A stretch of 34,629 nt of DNA, taken from the NCBI GenBank assembly GCA_017619685.1, contig JAFZRW010000024.1:1-34629 (forward strand). Reading direction: 5' to 3'. The notes below the pieces were generated by a model that was given only the letters and a program-made list of their open reading frames with translations, did no database searches and was not told the DNA's origin. This stretch comes from Schwartzia sp. (in: firmicutes). Its GTDB lineage: Bacteria; Bacillota; Negativicutes; Selenomonadales; Selenomonadaceae. Of the stretch, positions 1-3,750 are shown piece by piece; within the stretch, counting starts at the first letter, position 1, and the number at the start of each line of letters is the position of its first letter. Both the position numbers and the translations under genes were made by a program.

Positions 1-490
1 GTGGATTGAAATATCCTCCGAATAGCCCGTATAATCGCTAATTTCACGGAACGTCGCCCTCCATGCGGAGGGCGTGGATTGAAATTTTTGTTCCTTGTCC
101 ATCATCAGCGCCCCCTCAGTCGCCCTCCATGCGGAGGGCGGGGTTTGAAATTAGGTTTTCTCGTCCGCATTATCATGCTATAGTATGTCGCCCTCCATGC
201 GGAGGGCGGGGATTGAAATAAAATGGCGAATTCTGCTTATGTGGCCCGTATATTGTCGCCCTCCATGCGGAGGGCGTGGATTGAAATCAGTTCGTGTTCG
301 AGGGAGCATTGTTCGCATTGAATGTCGTCCTCCACTTGGAGGGCGTGGGTTGAAATCGCATTAAACAGATGTGCGCGACACAGGCCGCACGGTCGCCCTC
401 CTCGCGAGGGCGTGGATGAAATACGAACAAGGTGGCAGTCATCGACGAGGAAATGCTGTCGCCCTCCGCAGGTCGGGCGTGGATTTTGGC
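1..490 (+). CRISPR. Type I-C-like CRISPR array, trailer-proximal end (continues left of the window)
   Basis: 33-nt repeat GTCGCCCTCCATGCGGAGGGCGTGGATTGAAAT at 53-85, 119-151, 187-219 and 255-287; 1-12 is the 3' end of another copy. Increasingly degenerate copies at 324-356, 392-422 and 458-490. Spacers are unique, 33-40 nt. The GC hairpin plus GTGGATTGAAAT tail matches the Cas5d-processed I-C repeat class (cf. B. halodurans GTCGCACTCTACATGAGTGCGTGGATTGAAAT). Confidence 0.95.
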
Positions 491-523
491 ATAAGAAAAG
501 CGCCTTGCAATCGCAAAGCGCTT
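491..523 (-). terminator. Intrinsic terminator of cassette 1, fused to terminal degenerate repeat R*
   Basis: 11-bp stem 498-508/513-523 (one mismatch, loop AATC). On the minus strand it is followed by TTTTCTTAT, which runs directly into the complement of repeat 458-490. Confidence 0.7.
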
Positions 524-542
524 CATATTGATTAGTTAATGA

Positions 543-749
543 TTAGGCTGTTGCAAATTGTCCCGTTACCGAAACGCCCTTTACATCTGACTTATCAACA
601 GATTCGGGTAAAAACTCTTTGTCCATCCACTCAAACAATTCTTTTTCTTCGCCTTTTGACAAGGCTGGCATTTCTTTTCCTGACGGAGGCATATTAGAAT
701 CATTAAACCAAACTTCAATTTCATTTTCATCGTGCATTGTGTTAATCAT
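543..749 (-). CDS. Small acidic protein (68 aa), putative immunity/antitoxin partner of the JAB-like protein
   Basis: AGGAGG SD (complement of 759-764) lies 9 nt before the ATG and beside the upstream stop codon (756-758), so the pair is translationally coupled. 15 D/E versus 6 K. AT-rich. No recognisable family. Confidence 0.7.
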   Translation of the reverse strand: MINTMHDENEIEVWFNDSNMPPSGKEMPALSKGEEKELFEWMDKEFLPESVDKSDVKGVSVTGQFATA

Positions 750-755
750 TCCTTG

Positions 756-1436
756 TCACCTCCTAATAAGTTTAATATACTTTTTCCGTTGCATAAAGTC
801 AACTATTTCCTTTGCAAGCAAATATTCGACTTGGTCTTTGTCAAAATTTGGATGGTCAGAAATAATTTTCCTTTTCGTCTTTTCAACCATAACATCAATA
901 TTATTAAATGGCTTTAATTTCTCCATCCGATATACAACGCCATTATGACAAAATATCGTCGAACCATCGGCTTTTGGACGGTTAAATAATCCGCACACAT
1001 CATCTGCTGACGGGATCGAGCTATTAGGATGATTGTGTACAATTTCAAAATATTTTCCGGTATCATTAAGGTGTTTCGTTTGTTTTGCAGTCAGCCCGCA
1101 TCTAAAAGTTTGTAAACCTTTTGCGGATTTATTTTCGACAATCAATTCTCCTGTACGGCTATCAAACATTGCAATATCTTCATATGGCGTTCCGTTTCTA
1201 TGAGCCAGAAAGTCAGCGGCCTTTTTATATAGTGATTCGTTGACGGCCTTGTGTCTAGTAATTTCTTCAAACTTATCATGATATGCTTTGCTATTTATTA
1301 CGGCGTAATCTACCGTAAAAGCATTATCAATACCGTTTTCTTTGACTAAGACGGCCTCGCTATGAACCATCGAAAGCGCATCCTCCTTTGATGCCATTAT
1401 ATCATTTCCCTCGAGTTCTTTCAATAACTCCTCCAT
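756..1436 (-). CDS. RadC-like JAB/MPN metalloprotease-domain protein (candidate Tox-JAB type toxin)
   Basis: YEDIAMFDSRTGELI ... FEIVHNHPNSSIPSADD matches the RadC/JAB signature (E ... HNHP..PSxxD). ATG 1436 has a GAGG SD; TTG 1463 (ORF track start) is the alternative start. The N-terminal EELLKELEGNDI segment is shared with the 1879-2322 ORF. Confidence 0.75.
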   Translation of the reverse strand: MEELLKELEGNDIMASKEDALSMVHSEAVLVKENGIDNAFTVDYAVINSKAYHDKFEEITRHKAVNESLYKKAADFLAHRNGTPYEDIAMFDSRTGELIVENKSAKGLQTFRCGLTAKQTKHLNDTGKYFEIVHNHPNSSIPSADDVCGLFNRPKADGSTIFCHNGVVYRMEKLKPFNNIDVMVEKTKRKIISDHPNFDKDQVEYLLAKEIVDFMQRKKYIKLIRR

Positions 1437-1481
1437 GTTCGCCTCGGACTCTTCCTCGCTCAACGACGGGGCGGCAAACGC
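1396..1481 (-). repeat. Conserved 5' module of cassette 1 (homologous to 2234-2326)
   Basis: Aligns by eye with 2234-2326 at roughly 75-80% identity (e.g. ATTATATCATTTCCCTCGA, TCTTCCTCGCTCAA). Covers about the first 14-23 codons of the JAB ORF (depending on the start used) plus upstream untranslated sequence. Confidence 0.8.
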
Positions 1482-1528
1482 AATAGCAATTCACAAGCTC
1501 GGTAGACCGAATGTAGTCATTGGTTTTC

Positions 1529-1561
1529 GTCGCCCTCCGCAGGTCGGGCGTGGATTTTTGC
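1529..1561 (+). CRISPR. Degenerate CRISPR repeat R*, second copy, between the two cassettes
   Basis: GTCGCCCTCCGCAGGTCGGGCGTGGATTTTTGC is 32/33 identical to 458-490 and 22/33 to the array consensus. Confidence 0.85.
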
Positions 1562-1596
1562 ATAAGAAAAGCACCTTGCATTTCGCAAAGTGCTTT
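1562..1596 (-). terminator. Intrinsic terminator of cassette 2, fused to R*
   Basis: 12-bp stem 1568-1579/1585-1596, then TTTTCTTATG on the minus strand. Homologous to 491-523, with a compensatory G:C to A:T change in the stem. Confidence 0.7.
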
Positions 1597-1618
1597 CGCG
1601 TGTCGATATGTGATTAGG

Positions 1619-1873
1619 TTATGCGTATGTCACTTGCGGTGCAATCTTCGGCGTTGCATATTTCGGCATAGATGGAGCTGCGTCCTTTACCAATTCCAAA
1701 TCTTCATCTGTACAATCGAATTCCGCCCAGTTCCCTCCATACGCGCCTTTTACCGTGCCGCTTTTGTTGTTTTCAACGATATACATGGTTTTACCGTTAA
1801 TAACGGTCTTATCAACTATTGTCCCAACTATCCCATTATGCTTGATTTTTACCACGTTGAACAAATCGAACAT
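1619..1873 (-). CDS. Small SH3-like protein (84 aa), DUF4926-like putative antitoxin/immunity
   Basis: ATG 1873 lies 5 nt after the upstream stop (1879-1881), with a GGGAG SD inside the end of the upstream ORF. FNVVKIKHNGIVGTIVDK...MYIVE resembles DUF4926 proteins (from memory, needs an HMM check). Confidence 0.65.
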   Translation of the reverse strand: MFDLFNVVKIKHNGIVGTIVDKTVINGKTMYIVENNKSGTVKGAYGGNWAEFDCTDEDLELVKDAAPSMPKYATPKIAPQVTYA

Positions 1874-1878
1874 TTGAA

Positions 1879-2322
1879 TCACTCCCTGTGCGCGGTAATA
1901 AAACGCGGCTTTTCTTCCGGCGTGTCCTTTTGCCATACGGTTCGGAAACGCCTCTGCTTGGTAACGCCTAAATTCATAAAGATACTGAATTTTTCTCTCC
2001 CATCGGGGAAAGACACCTTATCAAACGCAAAGCCAATGTCGAAATGTCTGTCAATATCACGATTCAACTTTTCAACATCGTCGACGGTATAGCCAACATC
2101 AAAAAACTCCTGTGCGTGCAATGCGCCCGGCTTCAAAAAAAAATCTTTTATCTTGGCTTCGGGCATGTTGTAATTATCCGATTCGAGCATCCTGATACCG
2201 CCGATCTGATTCTTTGAGGCTTTTCCTGTCTGTATTATATCATTTCCCTCGACTTCTTTCAAGATTTCCTCAATGCCTGCTCCGTTTCTTCCTCGCTCAA
2301 TGTCGGGACAAACGGGCGGCAT
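1879..2322 (-). CDS. DUF6883-like putative toxin (147 aa) with the shared N-terminal EEILKEVEGNDI segment
   Basis: KIKDFFLKPGALHAQEFFDVGYT...RFRTVWQKDTPEEKPRFITAH fits the DUF6883 pattern (K.xDYxL.P.H..G..KA.FF..G ... W ... PRLxTxY) that pairs with DUF4926. ATG 2322 is 4 nt from CRISPR repeat 2327-2358. Confidence 0.65.
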   Translation of the reverse strand: MPPVCPDIERGRNGAGIEEILKEVEGNDIIQTGKASKNQIGGIRMLESDNYNMPEAKIKDFFLKPGALHAQEFFDVGYTVDDVEKLNRDIDRHFDIGFAFDKVSFPDGREKFSIFMNLGVTKQRRFRTVWQKDTPEEKPRFITAHRE

Positions 2323-2326
2323 ACGC
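2234..2326 (-). repeat. Conserved 5' module of cassette 2 (homologous to 1396-1481)
   Basis: See 1396-1481. A 1-nt indel puts the shared TTGAGCGAGGAAGA in a different reading frame here. Confidence 0.8.
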
Positions 2327-2491
2327 GTCGCCCTCTTTACGGGGGCGTGGATCGAAATTGTGCTTGTGCGAGTGGAGTAATATATTCAATGTTGTCGCCC
2401 TCTTTGTGAGGGCGTGGATTGAAATGGGTTCAGATGTGTTGCGCGGAATTTCGTTTTAGGTCATTCTACGCAAACGGGCGTGGATTCTGGG
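2327..2491 (+). CRISPR. Three-repeat mini-array (variant repeats), no recognisable leader
   Basis: GTCGCCCTCTTTACGGGGGCGTGGATCGAAAT (2327-2358) and GTCGCCCTCTTTGTGAGGGCGTGGATTGAAAT (2394-2425), plus degenerate 2460-2491, which keeps GTC and GGGCGTGGATT. Spacers are 35 and 34 nt. Confidence 0.85.
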
Positions 2492-2585: not shown

Positions 2586-2677
2586 GGGCTTCGGGGATTG
2601 ACAGGAATTTTTGCAAGAACAGAATTGGAACTTTGCCGCCTGTCGTCGCCCTCCGCAGGTCGGGCGAGGCTTGAAGC
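2586..2677 (+). CRISPR. crRNA-like unit: 5'-handle-only repeat remnant, ~40-nt pseudo-spacer, third R* copy
   Basis: AGGGCTTCGGGGATTGACA (2585-2603) resembles the repeat 3' half GGGCGGGGATTGAAAT. 2645-2666 GTCGCCCTCCGCAGGTCGGGCG is identical to the first 22 nt of R*. Downstream, AATAAAAAGCGCC...CGCTTCA is a decayed copy of the R*-linked terminator. Confidence 0.45.
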
Positions 2678-2802: not shown

Positions 2803-3417
2803 ATGAAAAATGTTTTTACGAAATTGATCGCCGTGTTTGCGGCGATGGTTTTTGTCGTCGCGGCGGCAGGCTGCGGAAGCAAGGGCGCGTCTTCCGGCGG
2901 CTCGGCGCAGACGGCGCAGACCGGTCAGCAAAAGCCGTCGCAGCAGGATAAGAAAAACGACGCCGCGAAGCCCGAGAAGAAGTCGAGCTATACGATGAGC
3001 GACGTCAAGAAGCTCAGGGACACGGACAATTTCTCGCGGCACGGACTCGAGCATATCTTCGACGGCACGGTCAACAAGAAGGGAAAAGCCACCGGCTATC
3101 ATTACTGCAAGGTTACGGACAGCAAAGGCCGCATCATTGACGGCAGCCGAAGCAAGAAGGACGGCAACGGCGTCTTTACCGCGAAGGTCGAAGTGGACGG
3201 CGTGAAGAAGGAAGGCTTCAGTTCCTTCTATCCCGAGGACTGGTCGCCGCAGGAAGTGGTGGACGCCATCAATACCGCTTACAAGGACGCGATGAACGAC
3301 CCGAAGAATCCGCACGGTTCGATCTGGATCGGGCATGCGGGCAAGCTGGAGATCAATATGTATCTGGACGACCACAAGAAGATCTTGACGGCCTATCCAA
3401 TCCATCGGGGGAAATGA
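2803..3417 (+). CDS. Lipoprotein with bacterial EndoU-like RNase toxin domain
   Basis: Signal peptide plus lipobox (VVAAAGC), a low-complexity linker, then HGLEHIFDG...KATGYHY ... ILTAYPI, which fits the EndoU_bacteria pattern (HIxxG...GGH...TAYP). Confidence 0.7.
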   Translation: MKNVFTKLIAVFAAMVFVVAAAGCGSKGASSGGSAQTAQTGQQKPSQQDKKNDAAKPEKKSSYTMSDVKKLRDTDNFSRHGLEHIFDGTVNKKGKATGYHYCKVTDSKGRIIDGSRSKKDGNGVFTAKVEVDGVKKEGFSSFYPEDWSPQEVVDAINTAYKDAMNDPKNPHGSIWIGHAGKLEINMYLDDHKKILTAYPIHRGK

Positions 3418-3420
3418 GTT

Positions 3421-3750
3421 ATGCTGAATTATAGAATCGACATCGAGGGAAAAGGGAATCCGCTGCCCATCGTGTATTTTGCAGATGAGGGATACGAGCT
3501 CGCGGCGACGTTCCTGCTGGCGGAGGCGAGGAATTTCGGCTCTGCGATCGTCGACGCGCTGGAGGCGGTGACGGGCGGTCAGAAGGATCACGGCTCCTTC
3601 GCCGGAAACGTGTTCAGCCTTGAGATCACGCCGGAAACGACTACGATCTGCGACGACATCTCGGGGAAGGAATGCGAGATAGGCACGCAGGATTTGCAGG
3701 AGGTTGCCGAGGAATACTGCGCGGCGTATGAGCGCCTGACGGGAAAATAA
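3421..3750 (+). CDS. Hypothetical protein (109 aa), putative cognate immunity protein of the EndoU toxin
   Basis: Starts 3 nt after the EndoU stop. Acidic, no signal peptide. The role is inferred from position only. Confidence 0.55.
   Translation: MLNYRIDIEGKGNPLPIVYFADEGYELAATFLLAEARNFGSAIVDALEAVTGGQKDHGSFAGNVFSLEITPETTTICDDISGKECEIGTQDLQEVAEEYCAAYERLTGK

Follow-up and report, generated by a model that had tools for sequence, protein, structure and literature searches.

Two minus-strand cassettes of two genes each, at about 484-1528 (cassette 1) and 1555-2326 (cassette 2), lie in the 34,629-nucleotide stretch of Schwartzia sp. DNA that we analysed (hereafter the window). They run antisense to a chromosomal CRISPR array, within its decaying trailer end; from its repeats we take this array to be of type I-C. 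In our opinion these cassettes are likely 5'-truncated orphan copies of the cargo slot found between the MuF and head-protease genes of phages, kept as toxin-antidote modules. We read them as orphan MuF polymorphic-toxin/immunity modules because both large cargo proteins are MuF C-terminal domains in phages. Each cassette would consist of the final 30-50 MuF codons, interrupted by small deletions; an effector or toxin domain that once formed the C-terminus of MuF (JAB-like for cassette 1, a DUF6883/BECR-type RNase for cassette 2); a small partner gene for a putative immunity protein; and a phage intrinsic terminator. Transcription would begin at an extended -10 sigma-70 promoter within the former MuF-toxin linker, and translation from an internal ATG would yield a free-standing toxin with its antidote, like a toxin-antitoxin pair; toxicity and immunity, like the promoter and the start codons, are predictions from sequence. 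An earlier note on this DNA had already read the cassettes as orphan toxin/immunity modules. The core of that reading is retained, with a MuF tail and MuF C-terminal cargo, but neither the silence nor the translated constant segment that it included.

Phage origin of the cassette ends

When the two cassettes were compared at the protein and DNA levels, we observed that both ends are common to them and that the cargo is unrelated, as had been claimed. By BLAST, the left ends (458-523 and 1529-1595) are 92.5% identical over 67 nt (E 7e-21). This stretch is made of a variant CRISPR repeat, R*, and a 12-bp hairpin terminator; past the hairpin the similarity wanes, with TGATTAGG still found in both cassettes. 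The right ends (1396-1470 and 2234-2307) are also significantly similar by BLAST, with 81% identity over 75 nt (E 2.5e-10), and the resemblance of the 5' modules, whose collapse under formal alignment the earlier note had named as a refuting outcome, withstood alignment. Right-end homology extends to 1481/2326 once an 8-nt gap is allowed, and the alignment also confirmed the 1-nt indel suspected between the cassettes, after TTGAGCGAGGAAGA. The gap between the large gene and the small ORF is 6-7 nt in each cassette.

Alignment with phage contigs showed the shared ends to be phage flanks. In phages, the counterpart of the shared 5' end is the 3' terminus of a MuF head-morphogenesis gene: MuF proteins of IMG/VR phages terminate in ...NCYCVCRPVIPQLSEEETEAGIEEILKEVGE, and five IMG/VR contigs encode a Phage_Mu_F protein terminating in ..DYIQPGELVNCYCVCRPVIPQLSEEETEAGIEEILKEVGE, recognized by Pfam (E 3e-8, above the cut-off) and by phrog_324 (E 1e-57). 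These phage MuF tails and the window DNA are 75-87% identical over 63-102 nt. The full-length gene that had been expected to carry the constant segment was thus found in phages, encoding a Phage_Mu_F protein with the segment as its C-terminal tail.

In cassette 1 the MuF remnant occupies 1371-1528 on the minus strand, with 75% identity over 102 nt to positions 674-774 of phage L054; it reads ..NDYIRSTELVNCYCVCRPV, an 8-nt deletion and then ..LSEEESEANMEELLKELEGNDIM, in the ORF 1402-1581. The 47 nt at 1482-1528 belong to the MuF coding DNA as well and do not form a spacer. In cassette 2 the remnant and 5' leader occupy 2191-2326 (minus strand) and abut the 5' end of a repeat at 2327, with 81% identity over 85 nt to L054 719-800 and 87% identity to L050/L051. 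In the MuF frame this copy reads VCRPFVPTLSEEETEQA, loses 1 nt and continues with IEEILKEVEGNDII, so that cassette 2 is indeed frameshifted relative to MuF, which the earlier note had offered as an alternative. The Phage_Mu_F domain itself (residues 117-236 of the intact protein of phage L054) is missing from the cassette proteins, where just the post-domain tail is left. Because only this interrupted tail survives, the cassettes are orphan derivatives and not full MuF members.

Two proteins, P0139 and P0121, carry the constant segment in frame. They were alone informative in a profile search with the 5' module, which was dominated by false 'proteins', translations of CRISPR arrays with FQSTPSIRRAT repeats. 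Relatives of P0139 in viral contigs have its C-terminal domain only, on portal or head proteins and with the linker absent, and no phage was recovered in which the exact linker ...EEILKEVEGNDI... is joined to the JAB-like or the DUF6883 domain.

The shared 3' end is a phage terminator. In cassette 1 it lies at 488-523 (minus strand), a 12-bp hairpin followed by a T run, 86% identical to L054 1661-1702. In cassette 2 it lies at 1559-1595 (minus strand), is 89% identical to L054 and is the same as that of a third cassette carried by other strains and described below, with 100% identity over 70 nt to L027 1200-1269. Among phage L054, cassettes 1 and 2, L008, L026 and L027 the terminator is 86-92% identical, with one compensatory pair (A-U to G-C) in the hairpin of the cassette 1 copy. 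In phages these two flanks bracket a variable cargo slot, in the order MuF gene, slot, head-protease gene; the slot has no cargo in L050 and L052, and in L054, L051 and L053 it is occupied by other genes. As homology arms, such ends would permit cargo exchange between cassettes and incoming phages.

Cargo proteins and their small partners

Searches of Pfam and PHROGs with the four window proteins returned a sub-threshold match to DUF6883 only. The large gene of cassette 1 (756-1370, minus strand) encodes a JAB-like protein of 204 aa with MVHSE as its likely start, the open frame continuing to 1463. Its motif E..HxH..PS..D is spaced one residue shorter than in RadC, and E109, H112, H114, P120, S121 and D124 are invariant in 9 sequences. 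In Pfam, weak matches to Prok-JAB (E 0.01) and RadC (E 0.06) were obtained, each in one homolog only, and the 235-aa window ORF had no match; the JAB profile retrieved nothing meaningful among PDB sequences. The AlphaFold2 model (mean pLDDT 82.6) had no Foldseek match at E 0.001 or better, its weak matches being to CSN, Rpn, a bacterial deubiquitinase and RadC (2qlc, probability 0.57). The RadC/JAB identity proposed in the earlier note is therefore weakly supported, by the motif and the weak fold matches, and not by Pfam on the window protein itself.

We found the JAB-like domain in 48 viral loci. Of 22 phage ORFs with this domain that were examined, most have a length of 430-610 aa and, 40-100 aa upstream of it, an HPNCRC-type motif; P0008 matches a phage minor head protein (E 3e-20). 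These loci define a JAB-like domain at the C-terminus of MuF proteins that had no name before, together with a small acidic partner; the domain could be an anti-defence effector instead of a toxin. In the window this partner is a 68-aa protein of pI 4.3 (543-749, minus strand), a putative immunity protein or inhibitor, with no family match in Pfam or PHROGs. A small ORF lies 3' of the JAB-like gene in 5/5 related loci (L008/L009, L010, L011, L026 and L027).

The large gene of cassette 2 (1879-2190, minus strand) would start at MLESD (2190) or MPEAK (2166), in an open frame that continues to 2322. Its product matches Pfam DUF6883 (PF21814) with 22.9-24 bits (E 1e-4 to 5e-5) where the cut-off is 27, and many of its 45 homologs are recorded with PF21814, at 50-71% identity. 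In phages, DUF6883 forms the C-terminal domain of proteins of 504-539 aa, and the MuF NCxC motif is present in two of these. The assignment of DUF6883 to the BECR-Tox3 RNase family is taken from a preprint that reports DUF4926 as its usual downstream neighbour and frequent fusions to Phage_Mu_F (bioRxiv 10.64898/2026.08.28.747851). The window shares with these DUF6883/DUF4926 pairs the order of DUF6883 and a small protein, as well as the Phage_Mu_F association, but the partner differs. This 84-aa protein (1619-1873, minus strand), the putative immunity partner of the RNase, has no Pfam match, DUF4926 included, at E up to 10, and only its model, a small SH3/Tudor/KOW-like beta-barrel, is similar (AlphaFold2 mean pLDDT 75.8, with SH3-like barrel matches at E 0.015 or weaker). 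None of its 9 homologs has a recorded Pfam domain, and in relatives its gene is always 3' of the DUF6883 gene. Judging from the model, a distant kinship to DUF4926 is possible. For the call of DUF6883 made in the earlier note there are the sub-cut-off match and the PF21814 homologs; the DUF4926 partner that it expected has no counterpart in Pfam.

Predicted promoter and substitutions in the 5' module

No convincing sigma-70 promoter had been noticed upstream of either cassette, and it had been proposed that they may be silent reservoirs. In fact, near-consensus extended -10 sites are present on the minus strand at 1424->1396 in cassette 1 and 2262->2234 in cassette 2, each with TTGAAA, 17 nt and TGaTATAAT. 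These predicted promoters (TTGAAA-17-TGnTATAAT) agree with the consensus at 11/12 positions and have the upstream TG; one such site arose in only 12/5000 shuffles of the region. TGnTATAAT is kept in six cassettes. The idea of a silent reservoir is not supported by these observations, and the cassettes are probably not silent. The promoter 19-mer TCGAGGGAAATGATATAAT had six matches in genome contigs, all unrelated and none with CRISPR repeats nearby; in metagenome contigs it was found in L008 again and at unrelated sites, and in viral contigs it had no match.

The shared peptide "EELLKELEGNDI" is encoded over this near-consensus promoter, and one could suppose that the shared segment is a translated N-terminus, the ORFs of 235 and 147 aa being the real products and the promoter likeness incidental. 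The frame is open in cassettes 1 and 2, L008 and L026, the peptide [IM]EE[IL]L[KQ]E.EGNDI recurs, and the sole in-frame ATG of L008, in which the core ATG is replaced by ACG, overlaps the -10 box. Between cassette 1 and L026, moreover, second codon positions of the 5' module have few differences (9, 2 and 9 by codon position). The same comparison, however, gives 12 non-synonymous and 4 synonymous codon changes in the module, unlike the coding core (20, 13 and 59 differences by codon position; 28 non-synonymous and 39 synonymous changes). In addition, L036 keeps TGATATAAT despite in-frame stop codons through the segment, L026 keeps both hexamers and the TG despite radical changes (G>R and D>G), and upstream of the segment the reading frame of cassette 2 does not match that of MuF. 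The core is the start of most homologs in both families, and with a translated segment only CRISPR repeats would lie upstream, leaving no promoter. We consequently regard this explanation as improbable, and a constant N-terminal segment that is translated today is not supported.

The cassettes could also be inert debris, that is, unexpressed and unselected leftovers of a prophage once situated beside the array. The MuF remnants are indeed broken by 8-nt and 1-nt deletions, the DUF6883 gene is frameshifted in the relatives L031 and L032 (P0018), and one cassette is missing in the window strain with no visible consequence. We nevertheless consider this unlikely, since none of the four cargo ORFs is disrupted, either in the window or in over five metagenome contigs (identity >99.6%), the JAB core is under purifying selection (third codon positions account for 59/92 differences), and cassettes of differing cargo have kept both TGnTATAAT and the terminator hairpin. 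If the cassettes are toxin-antidote modules, as we prefer, they would persist because loss of the antidote gene would be lethal, and/or because the antidotes would guard against the MuF toxins of superinfecting phages.

CRISPR repeats around the cassettes and relation to known systems

The array body (53-423, plus strand) extends beyond the window start, with repeat GTCGCCCTCCATGCGGAGGGCGTGGATTGAAAT at 53, 119, 187, 255 and 324, a degenerate repeat at 392 (plus strand) and spacers of 33-36 nt. The repeats are 32-33 nt long, belong to the GTCGC...GTGGATTGAAAT type and can form a stem-loop (hairpin of -16.8 kcal/mol); repeats, spacing and hairpin fit type I-C, and the Rfam match to CRISPR-DR9 is weak. 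The variant R*, GTCGCCCTCCGCAGGTCGGGCG, occurs in exact copies at 458, 1529 and 2645, with none expected by chance. R*1 (GTCGCCCTCCGCAGGTCGGGCGTGGA, 458-483, plus strand) is the left boundary of cassette 1; its final 7 nt are swapped for phage DNA, phage homology beginning at TTTTGGC, and the hairpin is weakened to -9.3 kcal/mol. R*2 (1529-1554, plus strand) lies between the two cassettes, and R*3 (2645-2676, plus strand), of full length, marks a site that is empty in the window. Since phage homology ends at the R* junction, R* is a feature of the array, outside the toxin module, and not an extension of the constant module into a CRISPR repeat as the earlier note had claimed. An exact-pattern scan found no R* in viral contigs, and R*-like sequence is absent from the phage loci with up to 7 mismatches allowed. 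A chimeric origin of R* from a repeat and MuF 'HPNCRC' coding DNA was also considered and dropped, the phage DNA at the junction having no similarity and no R*-like phage sequence existing in these loci.

Between cassette 2 and the decayed trailer lies a short repeat run (2327-2490, plus strand), with repeats at 2327-2359 and 2394-2426, a degenerate one at 2461-2490 and two 34-nt spacers. L026 has a similar repeat-spacer-repeat run upstream of its cassette. The spacer at 357-391 matches phage L052 at 24/26 positions with an adjacent TTC PAM, and spacers from the window array and from a related array match the phage family that supplied the cassette ends.

One R* site occurs in both a filled and an empty state: L027 carries a third cassette of 965 nt at the site equivalent to window position 2645, between two 22-nt copies of the R* core, and its flanks share 97-98% identity with the window. 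This third cassette is confirmed by L004 and L005 at their contig ends, with two different terminator types. From such a pair of filled and empty sites, insertion and deletion look alike. The terminator-side junction, with its 7-nt repeat truncation, is identical in all three cassettes and was therefore formed once and then copied. Association with a CRISPR array was seen again in the L008/L009 and L026 lineages, and because the repeats of the three array-linked lineages are closely related, it may trace to one ancestral event. Recombination between R* copies would gain or lose whole cassettes. One may go further and view the array trailer as a recombination platform that captures, keeps and exchanges toxin/immunity cargo of the targeted phages, with R* as boundaries and the MuF tail and terminator as exchange arms, a view that we hold to be doubtful. 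If it were true, the host would own an antidote bank against phage-delivered toxins, and adaptive immunity would be physically tied to innate anti-phage protection.

How the fragments came to lie between repeats might be explained by Cas1-Cas2 adaptation taking them up as 'giant spacers'. They fill spacer positions, their promoter-side edge abuts an exact repeat 5' end in cassettes 1 and 2, the third cassette and L026, and the source phage family is also targeted by the array. Against this, the far-side repeat lacks its 7 nt with the same junction in all three cassettes, the cassettes are at the trailer end and not the leader end, the L008 fragment has no bounding repeat on the terminator side, and every fragment covers one same phage slot; we give this explanation hardly any credit. 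It is also very improbable, if slightly less so, that the cassettes are CreTA-like or mini-array-like toxin modules repressed by Cascade, with a crRNA-like RNA from R* or from the short repeat run silencing the promoter and making the cell Cas-dependent. Mini-array targets in promoters of cargo toxin-antitoxin genes have been described, in toxin modules beside degenerate repeats and at a gene-shuffling hotspot with filled and empty variants (bioRxiv 10.1101/2023.03.03.530964). Here too degenerate repeats adjoin toxin genes, the window and L026 each have a short repeat run upstream of the promoter, and conservation between cassettes of different cargo is unusually high over the promoter region and its spacer. 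This conservation, however, follows from shared phage ancestry. No spacer or pseudo-spacer matched the cassettes above shuffle background, and no guide-promoter complementarity was found; when a TTC PAM was required and the seed was taken as 14 nt, the best match (10/14, 5 contiguous seed bases) falls in a coding region and is not significant after 14 tests. The R* hairpin is weakened, each predicted protein toxin is already paired with a protein partner, and the cassettes are within the array trailer, not among cas genes. The toxin-antidote reading is thus the one we retain.

As in the MuF polymorphic toxins of temperate phages (Jamet et al. 2017, PMC5576092; Zhang et al. 2012, PMC3482391), a constant MuF part precedes a variable C-terminal domain, here a predicted toxin, and a small gene for a putative immunity protein comes next; both the DUF6883 and JAB-like domains are MuF-fused in phage contigs. 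The cassettes differ in that only the last 30-50 MuF codons are present, out of frame, and in that they stand alone with their own predicted promoter, are chromosomal without being part of a prophage, and are flanked by CRISPR repeats. Jamet et al. 2017 (PMC5576092) use neither the word 'orphan' nor the word 'CRISPR'. MuF polymorphic toxins have so far been described as phage or prophage genes. If our reading is true, MuF toxin/immunity modules also persist on the host chromosome as self-expressed orphans, and one may ask whether such host-borne antidotes protect against phage-delivered MuF toxins.

Tandem orphan CT/immunity cassettes retain part of the constant region and can thereby be swapped by recombination. 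Shared flanks with unrelated cargo are a likeness to those of CDI, Rhs and other polymorphic toxins (Zhang et al. 2012, PMC3482391), whereas here the full-length main gene resides in an infecting phage and not in a host locus, the boundaries are CRISPR repeats, and the internal promoter makes expression without recombination plausible. A CRISPR array is apparently able to hold kilobase-sized phage fragments between its repeats, with a copy number that varies by strain, which raises the question whether CRISPR repeats drive gain and loss of genes besides spacers. In chromosomal superintegrons, promoter-bearing toxin-antitoxin cassettes lie amid recombination-prone direct repeats and may guard the array against deletion. 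The likeness is by analogy only, the repeats here being CRISPR repeats and the 3' hairpin a phage terminator with a T run, and it can be asked whether an addictive toxin-antidote pair stabilises the deletion-prone array end. Tn7-like transposons that target CRISPR repeats also bring foreign DNA that interrupts an array at its repeats (PMC11837452). In contrast to these, the inserts described here have no transposase, terminal inverted repeats or target-site duplication and are phage fragments of ~1 kb.

Cassettes between the repeats of a CRISPR array

A CRISPR array on the + strand takes up the first 2.7 kb of the window and continues past the window start. Its repeat GTCGCCCTCCATGCGGAGGGCGTGGATTGAAAT, which we take to be of type I-C, is present at 53, 119, 187, 255 and 324 (degenerate copy at 392) and again at 2327 and 2394 (badly decayed copy at 2461), always on the + strand. 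A variant repeat, R* (GTCGCCCTCCGCAGGTCGGGCG...), has only three exact matches, at 458, 1529 and 2645, and its hairpin is weaker than that of the array repeat (-9.3 vs -16.8 kcal/mol). Two AT-richer blocks occupy would-be spacer positions; they are cassettes 1 (about 484-1528) and 2 (about 1555-2326), both read on the minus strand. Other window proteins have counterparts in Schwartzia and Selenomonadaceae MAGs.

An earlier note had proposed that the two cassettes share their ends and differ in their cargo, which we indeed observed: identity is 92.5% over 67 nt at the left ends and 81% over 75 nt at the right ends, with homology resuming beyond an 8-nt gap, the 1-nt indel between the cassettes is real and the cargo is unrelated. 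The domain families expected there were found only in part. The 147-aa ORF of cassette 2 scores just under the curated Pfam cut-off for DUF6883, and many of its 45 homologs have PF21814 on record; since MLESD or MPEAK is where most of them begin, the actual protein probably has 95-103 aa. DUF6883 was described as a BECR RNase toxin (BECR-Tox3) that mostly precedes a DUF4926 gene and is often fused to Phage_Mu_F (2026 preprint, bioRxiv 10.64898/2026.08.28.747851). We found no DUF4926 match for the 84-aa partner protein, the predicted model of which is a small SH3/Tudor-like barrel.

A search of 5.8 billion proteins gave only nine homologs of the large cassette-1 protein, which has an invariant E..HxH..PS..D motif. 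Its profile matches to JAB/RadC and its fold matches to JAB/MPN are only weak, and we therefore use the label JAB-like tentatively. P0008, one of the homologs, is a fusion with a phage minor head protein. In IMG/VR, the JAB-like domain forms the C-terminus of 430-610-aa proteins with the HPNCRC-type motif of MuF, the phage head-morphogenesis protein, and DUF6883 is likewise C-terminal on 504-539-aa phage proteins, two of them with the MuF NCxC motif.

Phage origin of the shared ends

A profile of the 5' module, the shared right end, was searched against 1.8 billion proteins and matched mostly translated CRISPR arrays, the informative matches being P0139 (MNCRCVCRLLIPTLTEEETEAGIEEILKEVGD...) and P0121. 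A degenerate DNA pattern search found five phage contigs, the Phage_Mu_F protein of which (above the Pfam cut-off; phrog_324) ends in ...DYIQPGELVNCYCVCRPVIPQLSEEETEAGIEEILKEVGE*; the constant segment is thus carried by full-length proteins. The 5' modules are 75-87% identical in DNA to the end of the phage MuF gene. Cassette 1 retains more of this gene, from ..NDYIRSTELVNCYCVCRPV, which accounts for its "extra" 47 nt, while cassette 2 and the related locus L026 begin at VCRP. Compared with the MuF reading frame, cassette 1 lacks 8 nt and cassette 2 lacks 1 nt. The terminator module, too, is of phage origin (86-92% identity, 12-bp hairpin with one compensatory pair).

In these phages the MuF gene and the head-protease gene are separated by a variable slot, which the two flanks enclose; L050 and L052 have nothing in it, and L054, L051 and L053 carry other genes there. 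An 85-aa ORF between cassette and array in the related locus L008 is the 5' part of a gene that lies in this slot in L054. Since the shared ends are the slot flanks, the cassettes are copies of this slot and, as judged from sequence, orphan MuF-toxin/immunity modules. The polymorphic-toxin reading of the earlier note was right in substance, and the family can now be named as MuF.

Spacers of the window array and of the L008 array match MuF-tail phages. Window spacer 357-391 matches a phage of this family at 24/26 positions (L052 3095-3120, with TTC just upstream; also L050 9484-9512). This supports the view that the array is read on the + strand, that its PAM is of I-C type and that these phages are naturally targeted by it. 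The unusual feature is that the cassettes lie between CRISPR repeats of an array targeting the donor phage family.

A probable promoter within the MuF remnant

The earlier note saw no convincing promoter and suggested that the cassettes may be silent, which is not supported: the shared peptide EELLKELEGNDI overlies a near-consensus TTGAAA-17-TGaTATAAT on the minus strand in both cassette 1 (1424->1396) and cassette 2 (2262->2234). Four 11/12 promoter matches occur in the region, only these two being TG-preceded, and even one such site arose in only 12/5000 shuffles of the region. In the parent phage this segment is presumably coding, as a MuF-toxin linker. On several counts it has ceased to behave like coding sequence in the cassettes: neither MuF remnant is in frame; in the related locus L036 stop codons run through the segment and TGATATAAT is nonetheless kept; in L026 there are radical amino-acid changes, yet both hexamers and the TG are retained; and substitutions are 12 non-synonymous vs 4 synonymous without a third-position excess, in which the core differs. 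We infer that the segment is an internal promoter now driving a free-standing toxin and antidote.

Cassettes in relatives and their possible mobility

L008/L009 also have this JAB cassette, complete with its promoter and terminator modules and in antisense orientation, where an array of 43 repeats reaches its trailer end; in L026 it adjoins an R*-type full repeat, a second cassette being close by. In L027, another strain of the window's species with 97-98% identical flanks, a third cassette sits exactly at window 2645, enclosed by two 22-nt R* core copies, a site that is empty in the window. The genes of this third cassette are a JAB paralog (50% identity) and a 56-aa gene; it also has a TGaTATAAT of its own, and its terminator matches the one in cassette 2 exactly. 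The contig ends of L004 and L005 show filled alleles too, in which two types of terminator occur. All three cassettes have the same truncated repeat/terminator junction, so this junction arose once and was then copied.

A sister species has the DUF6883 pair with its terminator (window 2166->1555, at 90% nt identity) after a type III restriction gene, without R* or MuF remnant, homology ending at the R* junction and the start codon. There (L031 524-917, L032 5873-6266) the DUF6883 gene is frameshifted (P0018) and the downstream 84-aa gene intact, as expected if the toxin decays and the antidote is kept.

The best-supported explanation is that the cassettes are phage-derived toxin/antidote orphans that drive their own expression. 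Phages and CRISPR loci are known to recombine, which may bear on how phage DNA first came to be joined to the repeats. Shared phage flanks would enable cargo exchange, recombination between R* copies could add or remove units, and retention might reflect addiction, protection from incoming MuF toxins, or both. Less supported is a CreTA-like arrangement repressed by Cascade, as a search for guide-target pairs among spacers and pseudo-spacers gave none above the shuffle background. Capture of phage fragments as "giant spacers" is also less supported, since the cassettes lie in the trailer and all have one truncated junction in common. Pure debris fits poorly too: the ORFs are intact, the core is under purifying selection and regulatory elements are conserved.

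Several further observations were made. The stretch 2491-2644, flanked by the degenerate repeat at 2461 and by the third R*, is a decayed trailer with a perfect 21-bp palindrome (2505-2547) and a promoter-like TTGACA-16-CAGAAT directed into that R*; 2493-2508 is similar to the last part of the putative immunity gene in cassette 1, at its 3' end, and may be a scar left by a cassette that was deleted. About 20 nt past this R*, 2696-2711 (GCGCCCTCGTTGAAAC) has repeat-like 5' and 3' parts with the middle deleted, and looks like a collapsed repeat marking the true array end. Directly after the array (2803-3750), a lipoprotein matching the Bacterial EndoU nuclease domain (E 3e-25) and a 109-aa ORF without family probably form another toxin/immunity pair. 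In the sister species this pair (81% nt identity) adjoins the DUF6883 pair 3' of the type III restriction-modification operon, in opposite relative orientation. In an unrelated organism, ~60-nt non-CRISPR direct repeats (L039 28-95 and 767-830) flank a DUF6883 pair; cassettes of this kind may generally tend towards a tandem layout with flanking repeats.

The domain at the C-terminus of P0139 (..EYARV.SALN...IGDY.Y.VENNGFDNYRI) is found again in L041-L049, where it ends phage head-type proteins, presumably portals by eye, after an HPRxxDGRF-type linker; it may be another C-terminal add-on of head proteins. P0088, P0098 and most of the 322 matches of the 5' module profile are spurious ORFs across type I-C CRISPR arrays; hundreds of such "proteins", repeating FQSTPSIRRAT / ISIHALHTEGD, are in databases and can contaminate profile searches using repeat-derived residues.
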